Origin: Flavobacteriaceae bacterium
GTDB lineage: Bacteria > Bacteroidota > Bacteroidia > Flavobacteriales > Flavobacteriaceae
Assembly (NCBI GenBank): GCA_026710085.1
Contig: JAPORT010000050.1
Coordinates: forward strand, 3,227-67,226
Length of the DNA stretch: 64,000 nucleotides
Direction of reading: 5' to 3'
Every line of letters starts with the position of its first letter. The stretch's first letter is position 1. Under the pieces are notes generated by a model. It was not told the origin of the DNA and searched no databases. It worked only from the letters and a program-made list of their open reading frames with translations. The position numbers and the translations under genes were made by a program. Positions 4,446 to 61,870 of this stretch are shown here, piece by piece.

Positions 4446-5813
4446 TTAATAAATCAGTGTAAACTGTTCTCCTTCTGGTGATTGTACTTTGACGGTTTTG
4501 ATGCCCTCATTTTTCCTTTTTATATCTCGAACATCATCAATATTGTTGACTATAATGTCATTGATTTCCAAAATTTGGTAATTCAAATATTTAGCCAAAT
4601 AACTCCTCGAAACATTAGCGATGGTTAATGCCCCATCAGGATAATTTTCATTTCTCTGAGGTTTTATTTCTCTGATTTCCATACCGCCAAATGTTTCAGT
4701 GACCGATTTGGTTAGTGTGACAACAACCTCTTTTAGTTGGCCGTTTCTTTTATAGGATATATTGACTTGGTCACCTGGCCGTTTGCTAAACAAATGACCA
4801 TGTAAATCAGCATACTTATTAATTTTATTGCCATCAATCGTTTTGATGATATCTCCAGATTTCAAATTAGCTTGGCTAGCACCAGTATCTGGGAAAACGT
4901 CACTAATATAAAATCCTTCCGTGTCATCCACATTGAGTTGTTCAGCTGTTTTTCCTGTTAGTGAATTACCGACGACACCCAAAATTCCTTTCTGTATATC
5001 ACCATATTCCATTAAATCTTCAAAAACTTTTCGAACAATGTTGCTAGGAATGGCAAAAGAATAACCCACATATCCCCCAGTTTGTGTTGATATTTTTGTA
5101 TTGATTCCAATAAGTTCCCCCCGGGTATTGACTAAAGCGCCTCCCGAGTTTCCGACATTGACAGCAGCATCTGTTTGAATGAAAGCTTCATTTTTATTAT
5201 CTCTTAAATTAGAATCTCTACTTTTGGCACTAATGATCCCTGCGGTCACTGTTGAGTTAAGATTCAATGGATTACCGACCGTTAAAACCCACTCTCCAAT
5301 TTGTGTATTATCGGAATTTCCGAAAACCATATATGGCAATGGAGTTTCTGGTTCGATTTTCAATATCGCTAAATCTGTATCTGGATTTGCTCGTACAATT
5401 TTCCCATTGAATGTACGATTATCGTTTAGAGTCACTTCCAATCCGTTATTATCTTCGATTACATGATAATTGGTAATAATGTATCCATCTGGTGAAACAA
5501 CCACTCCAGATCCAACCACTGAAGCTGAACTAGATCTTCTGTACCAAGTACTATTAATGGTTCTGATGGATTTGATATGCACTACTTTATTAACCACGTC
5601 ATTCGCAACTTCTACAAAATCTGTAGGTTCTAGCATAGAACTAACATTTGGATAATCATAGGTTGTGGGGATGACTCGATATGGTGACTCGATTGAAGAA
5701 GCATCTATATGCTGAGCATTATCCAGTAAGGGTATCACAAAAAAATAGAAGAGTACAAAACTTAAGAAAGAACTCACGATCGCAATTCCGAATGTATTAG
5801 CAATTTTTCTCAT
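4446..5813 (-). CDS. htrA: periplasmic serine endoprotease, HtrA/DegP/DegQ family (trypsin-like domain + two PDZ)
   Basis: Catalytic motifs ITNYHV, DLAILK, GNSGGAL; N-terminal membrane/signal segment. ATG at 5813 (MRKIANTFGIAIV) preferred over the upstream track start. Confidence 0.9.
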   Translation of the reverse strand: MRKIANTFGIAIVSSFLSFVLFYFFVIPLLDNAQHIDASSIESPYRVIPTTYDYPNVSSMLEPTDFVEVANDVVNKVVHIKSIRTINSTWYRRSSSASVVGSGVVVSPDGYIITNYHVIEDNNGLEVTLNDNRTFNGKIVRANPDTDLAILKIEPETPLPYMVFGNSDNTQIGEWVLTVGNPLNLNSTVTAGIISAKSRDSNLRDNKNEAFIQTDAAVNVGNSGGALVNTRGELIGINTKISTQTGGYVGYSFAIPSNIVRKVFEDLMEYGDIQKGILGVVGNSLTGKTAEQLNVDDTEGFYISDVFPDTGASQANLKSGDIIKTIDGNKINKYADLHGHLFSKRPGDQVNISYKRNGQLKEVVVTLTKSVTETFGGMEIREIKPQRNENYPDGALTIANVSRSYLAKYLNYQILEINDIIVNNIDDVRDIKRKNEGIKTVKVQSPEGEQFTLIY

Positions 5814-9396: not shown

Positions 9397-10638
9397 ATGC
9401 CTAAATTAAAAGTCCAAAATCCGATTGTGGAATTAGATGGAGATGAAATGACTCGAATCATTTGGGAGTTCATCAAAAATCAACTCATTCTTCCCTACCT
9501 TGATTTAGATATTAAATACTATGATTTATCCATAACAAGTCGGGATAAAACAAAGGATGAAATCACCATTGAAGCAGCAAAGGCTATAAAAACATTCCAT
9601 GTCGGTATCAAATGTGCCACCATCACTCCTGATGAATCTCGAGTTGAAGAGTTTGGATTATCTAAAATGTGGCGCTCTCCCAATGGCACCATCAGAAACA
9701 TCGTTGGCGGAACTGTCTTTAGAGAACCTGTTATTATTAATAACATTCCTCGAATTGTTCCTGGCTGGACTTTACCTATTTGTATTGGAAGACATGCCTT
9801 TGGAGATCAATACAGAGCTGTCGACACTTCAATAGAGCAAAAGGGAAAACTCACCATGACATTCACTCCAGAGAACGGAAATCCTCAAACTTGGGAAGTT
9901 TATGATTATGATTCTCCGGGCGTAGCCATGTGTATGTTCAATGTTGATGAATCGATTTATGGCTTTGCTAGATCCTGCATGAATCAAGCCATTAATAAAA
10001 AATGGCCCTTATATCTTTCGACGAAAAACACCATTCTCAAAGCTTATGATGGACGGTTTAAAGATATTTTTCAAGAAGTATATGACCATGAGTTTAAAAC
10101 CCAATTTAAAAATCTTGGCATCACCTATGAACATCGTTTGATTGATGATATGGTTGCAGCAGCTTTAAAATGGTCAGGAGGTTTCGTTTGGGCTTGTAAA
10201 AATTATGATGGAGATGTTCAATCCGATACGGTCGCCCAAGGATTTGGCTCCTTAGGATTGATGACCTCGACATTAGTGACTCCCGATGGAAAAACCATGG
10301 AAGCCGAAGCTGCCCATGGAACGGTGACAAGACACTACAGAGAGCATCAAAAAGGAAATCCAACATCCACAAATCCTATTGCTTCCATTTTCGCATGGAC
10401 AAGAGGTCTTATGCACAGAGCCAAACTGGATGAAAATGAGGAGCTCAAGAATTTCTGTCTCGCATTAGAAACTGTTTGTATCCAAACTGTAGAATCTGGA
10501 AAGATGACCAAAGATTTGGCGCTATTGATTCATGGCTCAAAAACAACATCCCAGCATTACTTGAACACTTCTGAATTTTTAGCCGAAATCAGAGGCCGAT
10601 TGGATGAACATTTGTCATCAGCTTCATTCAACCGCTAA
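9397..10638 (+). CDS. icd: NADP-dependent isocitrate dehydrogenase (413-aa IDH1-like subfamily)
   Basis: [38 protein letters not shown] motifs. Confidence 0.95.
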
Positions 10639-30438: not shown

Positions 30439-32658
30439 TTAACGTTTGAATTTAGCATAGTCGGGGAGTAATTGTTTTAAAAGCGAGTTTAATTTACTAA
30501 AGTCTGGAACTCTATCTAGTTTTTCTAATCGATTGACTTCATGAGCTATTTGGATATGCCAATGATTACTCGAGTCAAATAATGGAATGGGAATGGATTT
30601 GAACGGACTTTTGTGATAGTGCATTTTGGATGTTTTAGTCCATCGCCAAGCTGGTTGCATGTTGGGTGCATTGATGACCCCAACAAGATATTGAGCTTCT
30701 TGTTCAGATTCACATAAAATATAGTACAATTTGGAATTTGCAATGATGTTGCGTGGAATTCTTATAGCCCTTAACGTATTGCCGGAAGAATTATAGACCA
30801 CTTTTGTTCTTGTCGTATCATCGCCACATTTGTTTAATTCATCTTCTAAATCTCTCTTAAATCCATAATTAAGTTCTAAAATTGGTTTAGACCTGTCCAT
30901 ATCTCTTTTTTCATCATATTGTTTTTGACATTTTTTCCAATATTGATGAAGATGAGGATATAGCCTTTTTCTTTCCAAATTTTCATTCTTCAATACATCA
31001 ATTCCATCCACTCCTAACATTAATTTTTGGTTTTTATCTAATGGTGCAATGAGCCACATTTCTGGTTCGTAGTTTAATTGTTTCAAATGTTTGCTATCGA
31101 TTAATGGAAGTAAACACTCGGATTCAATCATTCCATCAAATCCACAATTTTTCCAATCGCCTCTGGTTCCTTTTTGTGTGAATATTTCAGATAACCCCTT
31201 TTCCTTATCCATTCGTTTTAACACTTGGAAGTAACAAAATGGGCCAAAAAAAACCCCTCTTTCTACTTTATCCAAATATGGAGATTGAGCATGATTCATT
31301 GAATTGATTTGTTTTATCATTGGATTTTCTACATAATTTCCACTGAATCGAAATACTTGATGAGTTTTGAATTCAACTTTTTCATCGGTCGTTTTTCCCA
31401 ATACAACACTGCACCCATTGGGTGAATGTGCAAAAATGGGTGGTTCAACATCGGTTAAGTCCCACATTTCTTGATGTTGTACTTTCACATTCTTCCAGTT
31501 GCCTTCACGCCATTTTCTCCATGCCTGTCCAATGATGGGACTCTTGGGCAATACCCAGCCATACCCTCCTCCTTTTTGAGGTAAATAAAGCCTGATTGTT
31601 CTTGCTGTAAATAAACATGCTAAATCAACATTAGCCAAATAACCATTGGTTCGAGTATAGACCCCTTCGTCTTTTGCAATTTGTTTGTAAAGTACCTTTC
31701 TGATGGACTCTTGAGCATTATTTTGAACTAACCATGGGGGATTGCCAACAATACGCCCTACCCCTTTGGAAAAAAGATTGGTTAAGTATACTTTATTACG
31801 AATCAACCATTCCCAAATATGATTACCCTCTTCTTCAATGATTTTCTTCAAATCTTCATATAACGTTTTGACTGAACCTTTGATCCCTTCATCAAATTCA
31901 TCCAAACGGATCATTTTATTTTGAGTCACAATAGCATGGTTGATTGAGGAAACAATATTTGAAAAAAAGGGGTGATGATACAAAACACTTGAAATCTGAA
32001 TGGTGCTTTTTGGTGTTTTAATATCAATAAATAAATATTTGTCTCCGACATTATATTCATTTAGAGCACTACCAAGACATACTCGATAAGCTCCATCATG
32101 GAGTGAATCTGTTAAAATTGCCCTTAATGTTGCTTTACTCATCTCAACGGCAATAGGATGAATATCGATTCCATGAACTAATCTCGCAATGATTTTTGAG
32201 GCATGAAATAATTTGTCCTTATGATTCCGTCTTATTCGATTCTTTATGTGGATCGCGGACTGCAATAAAAAGGTTCCAGAACCACATGATGGATCAAGGA
32301 CTCCCAAGTATTCATCATTCGTGGCCTTTCCCATCATCAAATGATAGGCTCTTTCAATCGATTCATCCAACCAATCATCATCTAAGACTTGTTCCACCAC
32401 ATCTTTTGCCAAATAATCCGGCGTGTAAAACTCCCCAAATTCCTTTCTTTGCTCTGGCGGTGTTAAAGCATGATACAAATATTTCAAAACATCTTGTGAA
32501 TAAAATTCCCATTGATATTTTTGAATTTCAGAGGCCAACTGTATCATCAACTTTTTGGTTGACCGATGTTCCAATAGCCAAGCATGAAAGCCATCGCCTA
32601 CATAGTCGACCAACTCTTTTTTGGATAACGTCGGATGATCTAAATGGCCAATAATCAT
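30439..32658 (-). CDS. N6-adenine DNA methyltransferase + target-recognition part of a Type IIG/IIL (MmeI-like) R-M enzyme
   Basis: FGEFYTP, motif I LDPSCGSGTFL, motif IV GNPPW, long C-terminal TRD. The same frame stays open upstream with no stop as far as 32992, through the homopolymer at 32967-32975. Confidence 0.8.
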   Translation of the reverse strand: MIIGHLDHPTLSKKELVDYVGDGFHAWLLEHRSTKKLMIQLASEIQKYQWEFYSQDVLKYLYHALTPPEQRKEFGEFYTPDYLAKDVVEQVLDDDWLDESIERAYHLMMGKATNDEYLGVLDPSCGSGTFLLQSAIHIKNRIRRNHKDKLFHASKIIARLVHGIDIHPIAVEMSKATLRAILTDSLHDGAYRVCLGSALNEYNVGDKYLFIDIKTPKSTIQISSVLYHHPFFSNIVSSINHAIVTQNKMIRLDEFDEGIKGSVKTLYEDLKKIIEEEGNHIWEWLIRNKVYLTNLFSKGVGRIVGNPPWLVQNNAQESIRKVLYKQIAKDEGVYTRTNGYLANVDLACLFTARTIRLYLPQKGGGYGWVLPKSPIIGQAWRKWREGNWKNVKVQHQEMWDLTDVEPPIFAHSPNGCSVVLGKTTDEKVEFKTHQVFRFSGNYVENPMIKQINSMNHAQSPYLDKVERGVFFGPFCYFQVLKRMDKEKGLSEIFTQKGTRGDWKNCGFDGMIESECLLPLIDSKHLKQLNYEPEMWLIAPLDKNQKLMLGVDGIDVLKNENLERKRLYPHLHQYWKKCQKQYDEKRDMDRSKPILELNYGFKRDLEDELNKCGDDTTRTKVVYNSSGNTLRAIRIPRNIIANSKLYYILCESEQEAQYLVGVINAPNMQPAWRWTKTSKMHYHKSPFKSIPIPLFDSSNHWHIQIAHEVNRLEKLDRVPDFSKLNSLLKQLLPDYAKFKR

Positions 32659-32944
32659 TCGGGAAACAGAAACAATAAAAGAATGCCGCCAAAAAATGTC
32701 AGCCTCTATGGTTGGAGCACGATCTGGAATGACTCCTGCGTTTTTTAAGATGATTTTCCAAACCCCAATTTTCGTATGGTACTCCGTTGTTGACTCTAAT
32801 TGTTCCGATTGAATCGTACTTTTGATATTACTAAAAATCGGCTTGAAATCTTTTTCAAGTAAATTTTCTTTGGATGGTATTTTTATTTTTTGAACCCCTT
32901 TCCATCGATCATAGATGGAATCTTGGAGATATTGATGAATGGAT

Positions 32945-33367
32945 TCAGGGGTTTGAAAGGCTTTTGCCCCCCCCCATTTTTTCAGATTCTCTTAATTTTC
33001 GATGGTTGCTATCGTAATCATAACACGCCCATAGCTGGCCATCCGTGATCATCCCTTTCCAAACAATCGATTGACCTTGATTCCATAATTCATTATTAAA
33101 ATTGGGCACAACGCCATCAAGGTATTTTAATAATTGAGTTTTATTCTCTTCAATGTTCATCTGACCTCGTTTTTTGGTTTCGATGACCACTTTATTTGAA
33201 AATGAAATCATATCACATAACCCTTCTGATGTTGAAAAGTTTTGAGTCCAATCGTCTTCACTATTGAGTTGCCGAAAAATCATCTTTAGAAGGGTTTCAA
33301 GATTTCTTTCAGCACTATCAAGTTGAATTAATTCTTGATAGAGGTTTTCTTGTTCTTGATTCATCAA
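32945..33367 (-). CDS. PD-(D/E)xK endonuclease module of the Type IIG enzyme (truncated 10 codons after the G9 tract)
   Basis: CDMISFSNKVVIETKKRGQ...QLLKYL has the same D-x(10-11)-ExK-x-RG...Q..Y layout as MmeI-family nuclease domains. It reads into the methylase frame if the tract is G8 or G11. Confidence 0.65.
   Translation of the reverse strand: MMNQEQENLYQELIQLDSAERNLETLLKMIFRQLNSEDDWTQNFSTSEGLCDMISFSNKVVIETKKRGQMNIEENKTQLLKYLDGVVPNFNNELWNQGQSIVWKGMITDGQLWACYDYDSNHRKLRESEKMGGGKSLSNP
32967..32975. repeat. homopolymer C9 (G9 on the coding strand) at the nuclease/methylase junction
   Basis: Counted directly (cttttgCCCC CCCCCatttt). Tract length sets the reading frame between ORF 32945-33367 and the methylase frame. 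Confidence 0.95.
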
Positions 33368-33521
33368 ATATTTTTTTTAAAAAGCCATATTCTTGTTTAG
33401 TCACCAACATTCTTCTAGAAAATTTTTGTGTCAAAAGTATCATATCCTATTTGTTTTTTTGACTTGCAAAACGTTTCCTTTCGGGGGATCATGTTGAAAT
33501 TCATTTGATTCGTTTATGGAT

Positions 33522-34406
33522 TTATTCATTGTAAGGATCATACCCTTTGATGCTTTTATATCTCTTTTGGATTGTATCTAAGTGAGCTCCTTTTTTGGTG
33601 TCTTTCATACGCATTTCTCTTATAACGTATTTGAAATAAGAAATAGCATGATTAAACATATAATTGATAAAAGGTTCCATACTCTTATCATGCCATGAAC
33701 ATCTCAATGAGTATTTATAGAGTTCTGCATTATTTTCTAATATAGTTGTCAGTGGTTGTTTATGATAACCTTGTACATAGTTCATTAATAATCGACTGAT
33801 TCGGCTATTGCCGTCACCAAAAGGATGAATAGTTATTATGTCATAGTGCATTTTAAAACTTAATTCATAGATATCTAATACGTCTTTTACTTACCGACAT
33901 TTAGCATTATTTTCGACAAGTATTTTAGATAATTGAGATATCACTTCAGAATAGTGAATGAATTCATGTTTCGCATTTTTATTGAACTCCCATTCAACTT
34001 GGTAATCTCTTATTTTTCCCGAAGATCTATTGACGACCCGTCCACTTTCTATCATTCCAAGATTATTTATTTTATTCAATAATATTTTATTGACTTCTTC
34101 AATCATTGGTATTTCTATCGAGGTTTTAAATCGACAAAAATTGATCACCTTGTACAATGCATTGATATGGTTTTTTACCATTTGATCGTGCTCTACTGGT
34201 TTTCCAGAAGGTTTTCCATACTTCTGTAGTAAAGCCACTTCTTTTCTAGTCAGAGTACTTCCTTCAATTTTGGTGCTCTGCTCGGTAAGCAAAGCAACTA
34301 AGTCTTCTTGAATAAAAGAAGAATTAGAAATCAATTTTTTATAATTATTTACTTGGTTTAAGAATTCTTTTTTATCAAACGATTCTAAATTGTCCAAATT
34401 CATCAA
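33522..34406 (-). pseudogene. Fic-domain protein (class II, internal inhibitory SxxxEG helix) interrupted by one in-frame TAA
   Basis: ORFs 33891-34406 and 33522-33851 are in the same frame, separated only by TAA (33891-33893) plus 13 sense codons: ...ENNAKCR*VKDVLDIYELSFKMHYDIITIHPFGDGNSRISRLLMNYV. The Fic motif is HPFGDGNSR (G to S at the penultimate position). The inhibitory motif STKIEG is in the N-terminal part. Confidence 0.75.
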
Positions 34407-37535: not shown

Positions 37536-38720
37536 TTATAACAAATCAAACATCCGTTGTATTCTCACACTTGGTTTATGACCAATCATCTTTAAATAGT
37601 TTTGATATTCTTGCAACATCCAAGTTCTTAAAGATGGAATCGGGATTTGATAAAATCCATCAGGACGCATCTGCAAAACACCCCAGGAAACCAAGTCTTG
37701 AAACATCTGTTTCGGATCGCCAACAGTAGGGTTATTTTTAAAATCTGATTTCACTTGAGTTCCTATCACTATGTTTTCATGCTGTTCATTTTCAAATAGA
37801 GCATGATAAATGGACGCTCTTTCTTGTGCTTCCAACTCAGCAAAACGTTCATGATAATAAGTCTTTTTTTTACGACGAGATTCCTTTAATACTTCCGATA
37901 ATAAATCTTCTGACAATTGCCCACCTTCTTCTTTTATTTTTTCCAATGCCACTTGTCCATAGCACGAAACATGATGAGCCCACTGATGTGTTTCTTTTGA
38001 CATTTGATTCACCCAATGATTAAGATTCGAATCAGTAACAGCAACTCTAGCCCCTTCCACCAAATAATCTTTCAAAATATTATTTTCTGCTTCTTTGTCT
38101 AGTATGCTTAAATTAATGACATAATCATCATTGAATCTTGATATTTCAAAATCTTTAAATATTTTTCGGGTATGACTTAATCCAGTAATTAAAAAAACCA
38201 ATCCATGTTTTAATTCAAGATTATGAATTTCATCGAATAAGTTGGCTATTTTTTTTGTTTCAAGACTATCCTTGGTGATGCCAATACGAATCATTTGTGC
38301 TTCATCTAAAGACAGTATAATGGGTTTATCAACAGCCTTAACCATTTTTGAAATGCTAGGTTCAGTTCTATCATACCGCATCTTTTTCCTGAGCACTTTA
38401 AAATTTATTTGAACCTCTTTTGATGTTTTATCATAATTCTTTTCACCAATTAAAGCATTTTGTAATCTGCTGACATTTAATAAAGCATTCAATTCTAATT
38501 TCACGACATGGCAACCTCTTTTTTTCATTTGTTTCCCAAACTCATTTAAAAGAGCTGATTTACCAACACCTGGTGCTCCTTGTATTAAGATCGAGTGACT
38601 TTTTTGATTTTTTTTAGATAATGCTAAAATTTTATTGAAAAAGTTAATTTCTTGTTCTCTCCCATGAAAATAATGTGCTGCTCCACGATCCGTAACCGCC
38701 ACTCTTTTATGAGAACTCAT
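37536..38720 (-). CDS. P-loop NTPase (AAA+/archaeal-ATPase-like), paralog 1
   Basis: AHYFHGREQEI, Walker A QGAPGVGKSALL, Walker B ILSLDEAQ, C-terminal DGFYQIPIPSLRTWMLQEY. ATG 38720 (MSSHKRVAVTDRG) preferred to the TTG track start at 38768. Confidence 0.7.
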   Translation of the reverse strand: MSSHKRVAVTDRGAAHYFHGREQEINFFNKILALSKKNQKSHSILIQGAPGVGKSALLNEFGKQMKKRGCHVVKLELNALLNVSRLQNALIGEKNYDKTSKEVQINFKVLRKKMRYDRTEPSISKMVKAVDKPIILSLDEAQMIRIGITKDSLETKKIANLFDEIHNLELKHGLVFLITGLSHTRKIFKDFEISRFNDDYVINLSILDKEAENNILKDYLVEGARVAVTDSNLNHWVNQMSKETHQWAHHVSCYGQVALEKIKEEGGQLSEDLLSEVLKESRRKKKTYYHERFAELEAQERASIYHALFENEQHENIVIGTQVKSDFKNNPTVGDPKQMFQDLVSWGVLQMRPDGFYQIPIPSLRTWMLQEYQNYLKMIGHKPSVRIQRMFDLL

Positions 38721-38774
38721 ACACACGAAATTAACAGATTTCGCTAATCCGTGCCGTATCGCTAACAAAAAATG

Positions 38775-38870: not shown

Positions 38871-39344
38871 TTATCCAAAACCTCCTCGATTCGCAAAGTT
38901 CGCAAATTCACCCTGATTAAAAACCTGTTCTAGTCGATTTTTGCCTGATTGATCCAGCAACCATTGTCGCGCTCCATCTGAATACCCACCACCATCAAGA
39001 AGAATCATCGTATTGTATTGACTTTGATTGATGCACAAAACTTCATACGGATATTTTTCTTCAACACTTCCGCCAGAAGCTTGCCACTTGCATTGAATAG
39101 CCAAACAGCTTGGATATTGTTTTGGGTGATAAAGAATTAAATCGACCAATCGTCTTTTGTCGTAAATACTCTTACCTGTCTCAAACTGCCTCGAATAAAT
39201 GGGTTGATTCTTTTCACGCATTGGTAAAAATCGATGCGGTTCGGTATATCGGTAACCTCTTTCCTCCAATATTTCAGAAGCAAACCGTTCTAGTCTTTTT
39301 CCAGACGTATTAGCACGTGTACCACCGCTTTTTCGTCGTGACAT
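38871..39344 (-). CDS. small PD-(D/E)xK-type nuclease, putative restriction endonuclease partner of the Dam-like methylase
   Basis: GKRLERFASEILEERGY ... VDLILYHP...LAIQCKW fits a D...(E/Q)xK core. Its ATG overlaps the methylase stop by 1 nt (TAATG), implying translational coupling. Confidence 0.5.
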   Translation of the reverse strand: MSRRKSGGTRANTSGKRLERFASEILEERGYRYTEPHRFLPMREKNQPIYSRQFETGKSIYDKRRLVDLILYHPKQYPSCLAIQCKWQASGGSVEEKYPYEVLCINQSQYNTMILLDGGGYSDGARQWLLDQSGKNRLEQVFNQGEFANFANRGGFG

Positions 39345-40164
39345 TATTTCTTACTAGTGATCAAAAGCTCCGTCACTTGTTGACGTTTGGAGGCTTTACA
39401 ATTGATATTTCTAGAGGCTTGAATTTGATTGATCTGATAGCCTTTCCACGTTTTCCTTATAAAATCGGTATCACTGTTTGATACAATAATGCGAGCTCCT
39501 GCCTCGGCCCAAGAATCGCACATTTCCCTTAATTTGACTTGGCTATCTCTATTAAAACCTGAATTTGTATACTGATCGTATGTTTCATCGTAAGGTGGAT
39601 CGCAATACACTAAGTCATGATGACCTGGCCTGATATGCTCAAATGATTGAACTTTCAAATCAACAGATTCTAACACTTCTGAAACTTTCATTAAATTCAT
39701 TGTATCATAAATCTTAGGATTCTTGTATTTTCCTATTGGAACATTAAACCGACCAACTTGATTGACTCTATAAAGCCCATTATAACACGTTTTGTTTAAA
39801 TAGATAAATTGAGCTGCCAACTTCATAGCATCTTGCCCATGATTATATTGGGAATTATATTCTTCTCTTATGGAATAGTAATGTTCTTTTGAATGCTTTT
39901 TTTGATAGTCAGATAGTTGTTCAATGACCTTTCTTGGTGATTTCTGCAACATTCGATAGGTCAGCATCAAATCAGCATTGACATCGCTTAAAAAAGCCTT
40001 ATGATGTATTCTGCTATTCAGTCCAAAAAAAACGGCACCACCGCCTAGAAAAGGCTCATAATAATCATTAAATGGGGGGGGGCGATAAACCTTTCTATAT
40101 GAGAAATTAACGCTCTTTTTCCGCCAGCCCATTTAAGAAATGGGTATGCTTGTGATGGGTTCAA
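39344..40164 (-). CDS. Dam-family (alpha-class, DPPY) N6-adenine DNA methyltransferase, frame interrupted at a C9 tract
   Basis: From TTG 40164: [30 protein letters not shown]. The frame is then lost. The downstream ORF has [16 protein letters not shown] (motif I) and VYCDPPY (motif IV). Motif X (KWAGGK) and motif I are in different frames with 9 C and in one frame with 10 or 7. Confidence 0.8.
40074..40082. repeat. homopolymer G9 (C9 on the coding strand) inside the 5' end of the Dam-like methylase
   Basis: Counted directly (aatGGGGGGG GGcgat). Confidence 0.95.
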
Positions 40165-40311: not shown

Positions 40312-41367
40312 TTAAGAGAACACTTTAAGGTTGTTTTCATATTCTTGAAGCATCCAAGTCCGCAACGATGGAATGGGAATCTGGTAAAATCCATCCGAAC
40401 GCATCTGTAAAATACCTTTTGAAATCACTGTTTGGAAAGTTTTTTCGGGGTCTTGAAATCGTTGCACTTTTTTTAAATCCAATAAAGCATCAACTCCGCT
40501 GATGAGATTCTCGTTGATTTCATGATCGAATAGAGCATGAGATATCGCTATCCTTTCGGATGGTTTCCATTCATCAAAAAGTCCTTGATAATACTCCTTT
40601 TTCTTTTCACGCGATAGGACTAATATCTTATCCAATACATCTTCGGTTAACTGTCCATTATTCTTTTGAACAAGTCTTGAAACTATCTGTCCATAACAAG
40701 AAAGATAATCAGGCCATTGATGCGTTTCATTAGTTAAAGTATGAATCCATTGGCCTAACTTTGGATGATCCGGATGGACACCAGTCCCTTTGACTAAAAA
40801 ATCTTGAAGGATGTGCTTTTCGGCTTTTTTATCCAAAGTTTCCAATCGGAAAACACAGCCACTATTGAAACGTATGATTCGAAACTCATGGAAGAAACTC
40901 CGAGTATGAGTCAATCCGGCCATCAATAGAATCAGGCCATGTTCCGTATGGAGATTATGTAATTGATTTAATACGCTAACGGTTTGCATGATTTTAGAAT
41001 GTTCATGCCGATAGCCGACACCCAGCAAGTGGGCATCATCCAAGACCAACAACATCGGTTTTTGAATGGCCTCAATAGTTCTGGATATGCTTGGAAAAAG
41101 GCCATCCGTTTTGGCTTCACCGAATAAAATCTTTTGGAGGGAATCGATACACCATAAAGATTCTAATGTTAATGTTGCTACCGTCCAACCACTCTTTTCT
41201 CCTACTTTTTCGAGTTCTCTTAGTAATGCTGTTTTACCAACACCAGGTGCTCCTTGCAAAAGCACCGTGTACCCTTTTTGACTTTTTTGTGATAAGACTA
41301 CAATCGATTGGAAAGCATGGATTTCTTGTTCTCTTCCATGAAAATAATGGGCTCTTCCACGATTCAT
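40312..41367 (-). CDS. P-loop NTPase (AAA+/archaeal-ATPase-like), paralog 2
   Basis: AHYFHGREQEI, Walker A QGAPGVGKTALL, Walker B LLVLDDAH, C-terminal DGFYQIPIPSLRTWMLQEY. Colinear with paralog 1 over its whole length by eye. Confidence 0.7.
   Translation of the reverse strand: MNRGRAHYFHGREQEIHAFQSIVVLSQKSQKGYTVLLQGAPGVGKTALLRELEKVGEKSGWTVATLTLESLWCIDSLQKILFGEAKTDGLFPSISRTIEAIQKPMLLVLDDAHLLGVGYRHEHSKIMQTVSVLNQLHNLHTEHGLILLMAGLTHTRSFFHEFRIIRFNSGCVFRLETLDKKAEKHILQDFLVKGTGVHPDHPKLGQWIHTLTNETHQWPDYLSCYGQIVSRLVQKNNGQLTEDVLDKILVLSREKKKEYYQGLFDEWKPSERIAISHALFDHEINENLISGVDALLDLKKVQRFQDPEKTFQTVISKGILQMRSDGFYQIPIPSLRTWMLQEYENNLKVFS

Positions 41368-59870: not shown

Positions 59871-61870
<2,000 letters not shown>

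Follow-up and report, generated by a model that had tools for sequence, protein, structure and literature searches.

A gene interrupted by a run of nine guanines was analyzed in a window of 64,000 nucleotides (nt) from a Flavobacteriaceae bacterium (GenBank assembly GCA_026710085.1, contig JAPORT010000050.1, positions 3,227 to 67,226 of the forward strand). The term window denotes this whole stretch and all coordinates refer to it, unless a related contig is named. The locus (30439 to 33367, minus strand) is predicted to be one gene, encoding a single-chain Type IIG restriction-modification (R-M) enzyme of MmeI-like architecture. The guanine run most probably is a slipped-strand phase-variation switch, which would turn off restriction and methylation together; a probability of about 0.7 is given to this reading. 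Activity and specificity of the fused protein are predicted properties. The elements of the locus are:

32945 to 33367, minus strand: upstream open reading frame (ORF) with the PD-(D/E)XK nuclease domain, 140 amino acids (AA) from TTG 33367 or 139 AA (32945 to 33364) from ATG 33364
33212 to 33214, 33179 to 33181 and 33173 to 33175, minus strand: catalytic residues D51, E62 and K64 of the PD-(D/E)XK motif
32967 to 32975, minus strand: G9 homopolymer, frameshift point and proposed slipped-strand switch, ON at lengths 8 and 11, OFF at lengths 7, 9 and 10
32659 to 32991, minus strand: linker segment in the downstream frame, open without ATG, GTG or TTG, first half of the helical spacer domain
30439 to 32658, minus strand: downstream ORF of 739 AA, with the rest of the helical domain, the methyltransferase, the target-recognition domain (TRD) and C-terminal helices
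32275 to 32295, minus strand: methyltransferase motif I DPSCGSG, residues 357-363 of the fused protein, invariant alignment columns
31732 to 31743, minus strand: methyltransferase motif IV NPPW, residues 541-544, invariant alignment columns
33432 to 33439, minus strand: putative -7 promoter box of the Bacteroidetes type, TACTTTTG, roughly 70 nt ahead of the start codon

On the coding strand the junction reads ...GAATCTGAAAAAATG-GGGGGGGGG-CAAAAGCC..., in which the middle part is the G9 run (C9 on the plus strand). As sequenced, the polypeptide is interrupted and the upstream ORF ends with ...EKMGGGKSLSNP before its stop codon; gene callers choose ATG 33364 and not TTG 33367 as its start. Conceptual shortening of the run to G8 gives one ORF of 974 AA from the ATG (975 AA from the TTG) and G11 gives 975 AA, whereas G7 and G10 yield truncations of 159/160 AA and G9 yields 139 AA. 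The run is thus an intragenic homopolymer of at least about 8 nt, in which a change of one nucleotide in either direction decides whether the product is full-length or truncated. It is also the sole lesion of the gene, a second one being absent across 2.9 kb. In the downstream frame, which is closed upstream by TAA at 32992-32994, the first start codon is ATG 32658, and the linker from 32659 to 32991 is translatable solely at an ON tract length or through recoding. A preliminary description of this DNA had named the C9 run, the 140-AA ORF with its PD-(D/E)xK signature (D51...E62-x-K64), the motifs FGEFYTP, DPSCGSG and NPPW of the 739-AA ORF and a product of about 975 AA at G8 or G11, all of which were found again. 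It had placed the limit of the open downstream frame at 32992, one position too far; the frame is open as described, up to 32991.

The box TACTTTTG is the sole match to TAnnTTTG within 336 nt upstream of ATG 33364, at a background of 0.39 matches per kb per strand, and by this motif match it is a candidate promoter element. In public databases both halves of the gene are present as separate entries. The product of the 739-AA ORF equals P0001, which is annotated as 'MAG: N-6 DNA methylase [Flavobacteriaceae bacterium]' (MAG, metagenome-assembled genome), and that of the 139-AA ORF equals MCY4298399.1.

Chance does not account for the tract, because a first-order Markov model predicts 0.07 G/C runs of at least 9 nt in 64 kb at the given GC content of 35.7%, while two are observed (about 27-fold over), because the run lengths are bimodal, fading out by 6 nt and returning at 8-9 nt, because GGG accounts for only 16% of the glycine codons, and because the tract is an insertion relative to homologs. 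The preliminary description, too, had remarked on a G9 in such AT-rich DNA. The sole other long G/C run of the window is an in-frame G8 on the coding strand (61085-61092, ..QRGGSP..) within the pfkA ORF for 6-phosphofructokinase (60887-61870, minus strand). Since pfkA carries this run, long G runs are not confined to dispensable genes.

The assignment to Type IIG is based on profile searches, homologs and structure comparison. The best PADLOC model for the fused protein was REase_MTase_IIG (1.7e-38). Pfam Eco57I (PF07669) was matched at 9e-9 with 36.1 bits (cut-off 25.3) and N6_Mtase with 26.6 bits (cut-off 20.4). MmeI_Mtase (PF20473) stayed below its threshold with 20 bits (cut-off 27), and MmeI_N, MmeI_hel, MmeI_TRD and MmeI_C gave no Pfam match at E ≤ 0.1. 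The domain order is an N-terminal PD-ExK nuclease, a helical spacer, a gamma-class N6-adenine methyltransferase and a TRD, and the subtype is probably Type IIL. Strict membership in the MmeI family was rejected, as the MmeI-specific Pfam models remain under threshold; the enzyme is a distant relative instead. Of the earlier proposal of an MmeI-like Type IIG enzyme, the type (by PADLOC and colinearity) and the architecture therefore hold, the strict family assignment does not.

A database search returned 604 homologs. Those that cover nearly the whole query consist of one chain of about 900-1120 AA, in most cases 950-1030 AA, and the possibility raised in the preliminary description that nuclease and methylase are normally separate genes is not borne out by them. 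The closest intact homolog, P0002, has 974 AA and 63% identity at 100% query coverage. The junction alignment that had been proposed as a check was performed with the conceptual G8 product, which is colinear with such single chains across the junction and from end to end (alignments of 18 and 71 sequences). In the 71 homologs the triad D51, E62 and K64 is conserved to at least 90%. The residues encoded by the tract, KMGG, form an insertion of 3-4 residues in a variable linker.

In an AlphaFold2 model of the fused chain (mean predicted local distance difference test score, pLDDT, 89.8; predicted template modeling score, pTM, 0.87), D51, E62 and K64 lie on the adjacent beta strands 48-54 and 59-63, and the tract falls in the coding sequence of a loop (residues 127-138) that links the nuclease domain with the helical spacer. 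Motif I of the methylase follows about 225 codons downstream. Hence, the tract is located at a domain boundary, as had been proposed, but this is the boundary of nuclease and spacer and not that of nuclease and methylase. Searched on its own against the sequences of the PDB, the fused protein gave nothing at E ≤ 1. With a family profile searched against solved structures, the best match was MmeI (5hr4; E 4.4e-8 over about 100 residues). Foldseek matched the model to CamA and M.BseCI in methylase and TRD, and to the full-length Type IIG/IIL enzymes BpuSI, MmeI and DrdV. The alignments span about 730-1140 columns with a probability of 1.00 each and support a C-terminal TRD of the TaqI/MmeI type.

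Selection on the fused frame was assessed with a diverged allele, L006, located at a different genomic site on a circular contig of 2.75 Mb (423x coverage). It carries G9 at the same tract position, and its conceptual G8 product has 995 AA. When genome contigs were scanned with the fused protein, only OZ244911.1 matched, which is the same chromosome as that of L006. Between the window allele and L006, the N-terminal part has a synonymous divergence (dS) of 0.56 and a ratio of non-synonymous to synonymous divergence (dN/dS) of 0.11; for the rest of the protein the values are 0.86 and 0.22. In the 99-codon linker, which lacks a start codon, 90% of the amino acids are identical (dN 0.055, dS 0.38, dN/dS 0.145). 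Since this linker is untranslatable when the gene is split and nevertheless evolves at a dN/dS of 0.145, these values indicate that purifying selection acts on the fused frame, linker included. The tract has been retained uninterrupted across this divergence.

The linker also bears on a stable split into two genes, i.e. a 139-AA nuclease subunit and a 739-AA methylase/TRD subunit starting at ATG 32658 (Met236 of the fused protein). In favor of such a split, neither ORF is damaged, both evolve under purifying selection, and Met236 is kept between the window allele and L006. However, the selected 99 codons from the tract to Met236 would then have no start codon, and Met236 is Ile in the closest intact homolog and Ile or Leu in close intact homologs. 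In the AlphaFold2 model it is placed inside helix 217-242 of the spacer, and no TAnnTTTG box was found within 342 nt upstream of it. Homologs without the tract are, moreover, single chains. A stable split is accordingly considered very improbable, and the methylase-only product from ATG 32658 considered in the preliminary description has found no support.

The window allele (30439-33364) itself is a mosaic. Over alignment columns 0-540 its identity to L006 is 80-95%, whereas its TRD half is 75-94% identical to the orthologs L004 and L005 and 20-70% identical to L006. This suggests an exchange of modules or TRDs between paralogous loci. The tract-bearing module would thus have been recombined onto another TRD, and the resulting allele is still intact.

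Phase variation of the gene is further indicated by its orthologs in the syntenic position, which are broken at homopolymers as well, at other positions. L004 has a single break at a G9 at codon ~595 (LPKMGGG|YGW), and G8 would restore 960 AA. L005 has a single break at a C15 shortly ahead of motif I (codon ~345), and C14 would restore 976 AA; at the site of the L004 tract, L005 has an in-frame G7. The gene order of L004 is queG-RM-mdh-secDF, the R-M gene being located directly between queG and mdh. In L005 the order queG-RM is shared, but the downstream genes differ. The closest intact homolog (L003) is without a tract. For L006 a near-identical counterpart exists, L007, with 7 single-nucleotide polymorphisms (SNPs) in 10.4 kb. 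At the shared Type IIG tract L006 has G9 and L007 has G10. Both G/C tracts of nine differ in length between the two (G9/G10 and C9/C8), compared to one of four A/T runs of at least 8 nt.

Further 9-nt G/C tracts were noticed in the related genomes: at 3967-3975 in L004, at 9208-9216 in L006, at 9125-9133 in L005 and, as two G9 less than 100 nt apart, at 10349-10357 and 10445-10453 in L009, a contig with a remnant of the same gene family. The C9 of L006 (9208-9216) is C8 in L007 (9212-9219), and the C9 of L004 sits 25 nt upstream of the R-M start codon. Several of these additional tracts appear to be intergenic, and the lineage seems to hold many of them, mostly of exactly 9 nt. L005, L007 and L009, all from one sample and covered 9-11x, are possibly three loci of the same genome.

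Decay is the obvious alternative for a broken gene. A recent pseudogene would have been broken at its most mutable site first, the OFF state would be effectively permanent and decay would just be starting. Every allele observed is OFF and an ON allele was not found; other decayed genes are present nearby (a Fic gene with an in-frame stop), and a decayed paralog, L009, exists in a related genome. Such a pseudogene would not be expected to show a dN/dS of 0.11-0.22 over a dS of 0.4-0.9 between two G9 alleles, with the untranslatable linker included, nor to stay without a second lesion in 2.9 kb and with an uninterrupted tract since the divergence from L006. L004, L005 and L006 are each one nucleotide away from intact, at homopolymers only, and the recombinant mosaic allele remains intact. 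The copy in L009, which was reached through a homolog search with the N-terminal 235 AA (2 proteins returned, word index), illustrates genuine decay. At 4907-5763 it retains residues 1-289 only, distributed over three reading frames, at a MacB/FtsX-adjacent site where the gene of L003 is intact. A switch is preferred over decay because of the purifying selection, the homopolymer-only breaks in the orthologs and the G9/G10 strain pair, and because the truly decayed L009, with three frames and truncation at AA 289, looks different. Recent pseudogenization is thus rated improbable, and the earlier claim of a switch rather than random decay is supported, with the switching itself being inferred.

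The second G/C run of at least 9 nt in the window affects another R-M gene. The elements concerned are:

40074 to 40082, G9 on the plus strand and C9 on the coding minus strand: second 9-nt tract, frameshifting the 5' end of a Dam-like gene, ON at lengths 10 or 7
39344 to 40164, minus strand, TTG start at 40164: gene of a Dam-like (D12-class) methyltransferase, Pfam MethyltransfD12
38871 to 39344, minus strand: PDDEXK_11 nuclease ORF (1.4e-28), overlapping the 3' end of the Dam-like gene

The canonical N-terminus of the Dam-like protein, MNPSQAYPFLKWAGGKR (PFLKWAGGK), starts at TTG 40164 and is encoded in another frame than EPFLGGGAV. With C10 the conceptual product has 273 AA and with C7 it has 272 AA; the C10 product matches positions 1-253 of 253 of Pfam MethyltransfD12 (8.5e-55). 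The gene is publicly annotated as an ORF of 262 AA from an out-of-frame ATG. This OFF form is present on 12 contigs, and an in-frame form was not found. The Dam-like gene and the PDDEXK_11 ORF probably constitute a second switchable R-M pair, as judged from the frames and domain matches. The two tracts need opposite corrections: the Type IIG tract -1 or +2 nt, the Dam-like tract +1 or -2 nt. Because of these opposite shifts, a one-directional sequencing bias or a single recoding mechanism is disfavored for both.

Tract length was then compared across assemblies. The 139-AA product of the G9 state is present on 8 contigs from several datasets, five of which were read: ERZ27276879 and ERZ23497148 (ENA assemblies, one with a k141 contig in MEGAHIT style and one with a scaffold) and the Logan contigs of SRR10996935, ERR5005019 and ERR5004232. 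A stretch of 8.2 kb around the gene is identical to scaffold_150 of ROBB21-1_SAMN13943197 and differs by 2 SNPs from k141_46831 of ERZ27276879. A search of JGI metagenome contigs for the tract flanks with a variable gap returned 0 matches, and the organism apparently is absent from that collection; none of its proteins lists JGI as a source. In the literature, the sample and run accessions were not found.

Several results weigh against phase variation. The five contigs read all have exactly G9, without length variation. In a collection of about 15 billion proteins, exact look-up found neither the G8, G11, G10 and G7 products of the window allele nor the G8 and G11 products of L006, the G8 product of L004, the C14 product of L005 or the C10 and C7 products of the Dam-like gene. 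All tract-bearing alleles found are OFF. The sole length difference, G9/G10, is derived from L007, a 9x contig in which homopolymer miscalls are possible. This contig, which also has a gene-breaking A8 to A9 difference, may be a long-read assembly, the platform being deduced from the contig naming. Uniformity of the consensus is still compatible with hypermutability, because the modal length of poly-G/C tracts in Campylobacter jejuni is likewise nine repeats, where insertions predominate among the mutations of G8 and deletions among those of G11 (PMC3401435).

A uniform G9 could also be a miscalled homopolymer length in sequencing or assembly, with the real gene being intact. Several platforms tend to make errors at long G/C homopolymers, and the contigs of L007, L005 and L009 have only 9-11x coverage. 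Against this, the same G9 was obtained in independent assemblies of several runs with different assemblers, and the sister allele L006 has G9 in a circular chromosome of 423x. An error would further have to act in opposite directions on the two tracts of the window, in which the in-frame G8 of pfkA was read correctly. A miscall is therefore thought highly unlikely.

More weight is given to recoding of a fixed G9, which is nonetheless unlikely. RNA polymerase slippage, or ribosomal +1 frameshifting at GGG-G, would produce a small and constant fraction of the full-length protein; the tract would control how much of a possibly toxic enzyme is made and would not act as a heritable switch in the DNA. 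G9 is common to the 8 contigs, to the diverged L006 and, at another site, to L004, an allele of ON length was not found in the protein collection, and the fused frame is nonetheless under strong purifying selection, all of which would fit. Transcriptional slippage on runs of at least 9 nt is, in addition, established for A/T runs of bacteria; slippage of RNA polymerase on G/C runs is less well documented. The G10 at the same tract in L007 speaks against fixation of G9, and the C15 of L005 is so long that instability at the DNA level is suggested. The Type IIG and Dam-like tracts require opposite corrections, and no stimulatory element is evident; for these two reasons ribosomal frameshifting in particular was held unlikely. 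A wider form of this explanation is doubtful as well. It assumes that the lineage has a Campylobacter-like set of 9-nt G/C tracts on R-M genes, fixed out of frame in natural populations, with full-length enzyme arising mainly by slippage at the RNA level and the tract serving as dose limiter; the tracts would have arisen independently in at least three positions of the Type IIG ortholog group and in the Dam-like methylase. A stable modal G9 is, finally, also expected from the mutational equilibrium in C. jejuni (PMC3401435), i.e. without any recoding.

For the phase-variation switch, the following course is proposed. A hypermutable G tract would have arisen in an insertion encoding a loop between nuclease and spacer, and slipped-strand mispairing during replication would alter its length by one nucleotide in either direction. 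In the ON state (G8 or G11), the full enzyme of 974/975 AA would methylate its own sites and restrict unmodified incoming DNA. In the OFF state (G9, the state sequenced), translation would stop after 139 AA and leave a nuclease domain without a DNA-recognition module. Restriction and modification would vanish together, by which self-killing after a separate loss of the methylase would be avoided. Joint loss of both activities has been argued to make a Type IIG enzyme safe to switch in the case of Cj0031 (PMC4889913). A population could hedge in this way between defended cells and cells which are undefended but cheaper or open to DNA uptake, and it may also vary in its methylation pattern. That switching occurs, at which rate, and whether it confers a selective benefit, we infer.

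The closest known counterpart is Cj0031 of C. jejuni NCTC11168, a Type IIG enzyme in which a G9 tract splits the gene into cj0031 and cj0032; its switching between ON and OFF has been measured, as have its methylated motif and its restriction of phage (Anjum et al. 2016, PMC4889913). Both proteins are single chains of a nuclease and an N6-adenine methylase with a Pfam Eco57I domain. In both, an intragenic poly-G tract of nine splits the gene by a ±1 change into two annotated ORFs, and the OFF state removes, or here would remove, restriction and methylation at once. In either case the TRD region differs among alleles, only a subset of which carries the tract. However, Cj0031 has 1243 AA and a tract late in the gene, within the region for methylase and TRD (nt 2573 of 3732), whereas the present tract occurs early (nt ~393 of 2925), where nuclease and spacer meet. 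The former belongs to a pathogen of the Campylobacterota, the latter to an uncultured member of the Flavobacteriaceae (Bacteroidota), found in metagenomes only.

Helicobacter pylori JHP1272 and HP1353-HP1354 (Hpy99XIV family) are Type IIG/IIL enzymes with homopolymer switches as well (Krebes et al. 2014, PMC3936762). These MmeI/TaqII-like single chains are interrupted by C-homopolymers, which there encode poly-Pro; activity returns when the frameshift is repaired, and tract length varies among strains (PMC3936762). The H. pylori genes have two tracts each, the second of which alters specificity via an extra TRD module. In contrast, the present alleles have one disrupting tract each, at codons ~132, ~345 and ~595 across the orthologs, and a specificity-switch module is not evident in the gene.

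MmeI itself (Type IIL; PDB 5hr4) shares the order of PD-ExK nuclease (D-Xn-E-X-K), helical spacer, gamma-class N6-adenine methylase and TRD and has no adjacent companion methylase either. It is the best structure match of the family profile (E 4.4e-8, colinear) and is found by Foldseek with a probability of 1.00, but identity in the Foldseek alignment is about 12%, and the Pfam Eco57I model passes where the MmeI-specific models do not. We know of no homopolymer tract in MmeI, for which no search was made in the present analysis. Phasevarions, i.e. Type III mod genes in Haemophilus, Neisseria and Helicobacter, are similar in that frameshifting at a repeat leads to clonal ON/OFF methylation by the methyltransferase. 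They differ in belonging to Type III, where the switch acts on mod and res depends on mod, in having repeats that are often tetra- or pentanucleotides, and in their demonstrated regulatory role.

The surroundings of the gene contain further elements of interest, all on the minus strand:

33522 to 34406: Fic-domain gene with an in-frame TAA at 33891-33893, resulting in ORFs of 171 AA and 109 AA
34906 to 36174: TnpB (OrfB) gene of the IS605 family, near the Dam-like/PDDEXK_11 pair
37536 to 38768 and 40312 to 41367: paralogous AAA/STAND-like ATPase genes flanking the Dam-like/PDDEXK_11 pair

The Fic gene is an ordinary nonsense pseudogene without a homopolymer, in contrast to the R-M gene. No companion methylase adjoins the Type IIG gene, its neighbors being the Fic pseudogene and the gene for malate dehydrogenase (mdh). 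The region of about 30.4-41.4 kb looks like an island of defense genes and mobile elements, inserted beside mdh-secDF.

Studies of homopolymer-driven phase variation in R-M genes come almost exclusively from host-adapted pathogens such as Campylobacter, Helicobacter, Haemophilus, Neisseria and Mycoplasma, and the phase variation known in Bacteroidota is mostly due to DNA inversion. A literature search on poly-G phase variation in Flavobacteria returned nothing relevant. The kind of switch proposed is already known from Cj0031 and H. pylori JHP1272; the phylum is unusual. In this lineage, the tract position differs among orthologs, and a second R-M system within the same 64 kb also carries a tract. 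Entries in MAG annotations that appear as 'split' genes or as 'N-6 DNA methylase' can hide switchable full-length Type IIG enzymes, as is the case for the public annotation of the present gene. If phase variation is confirmed, poly-G/C contingency loci would extend to environmental Bacteroidota, and such tracts would have been gained repeatedly in one defense gene.

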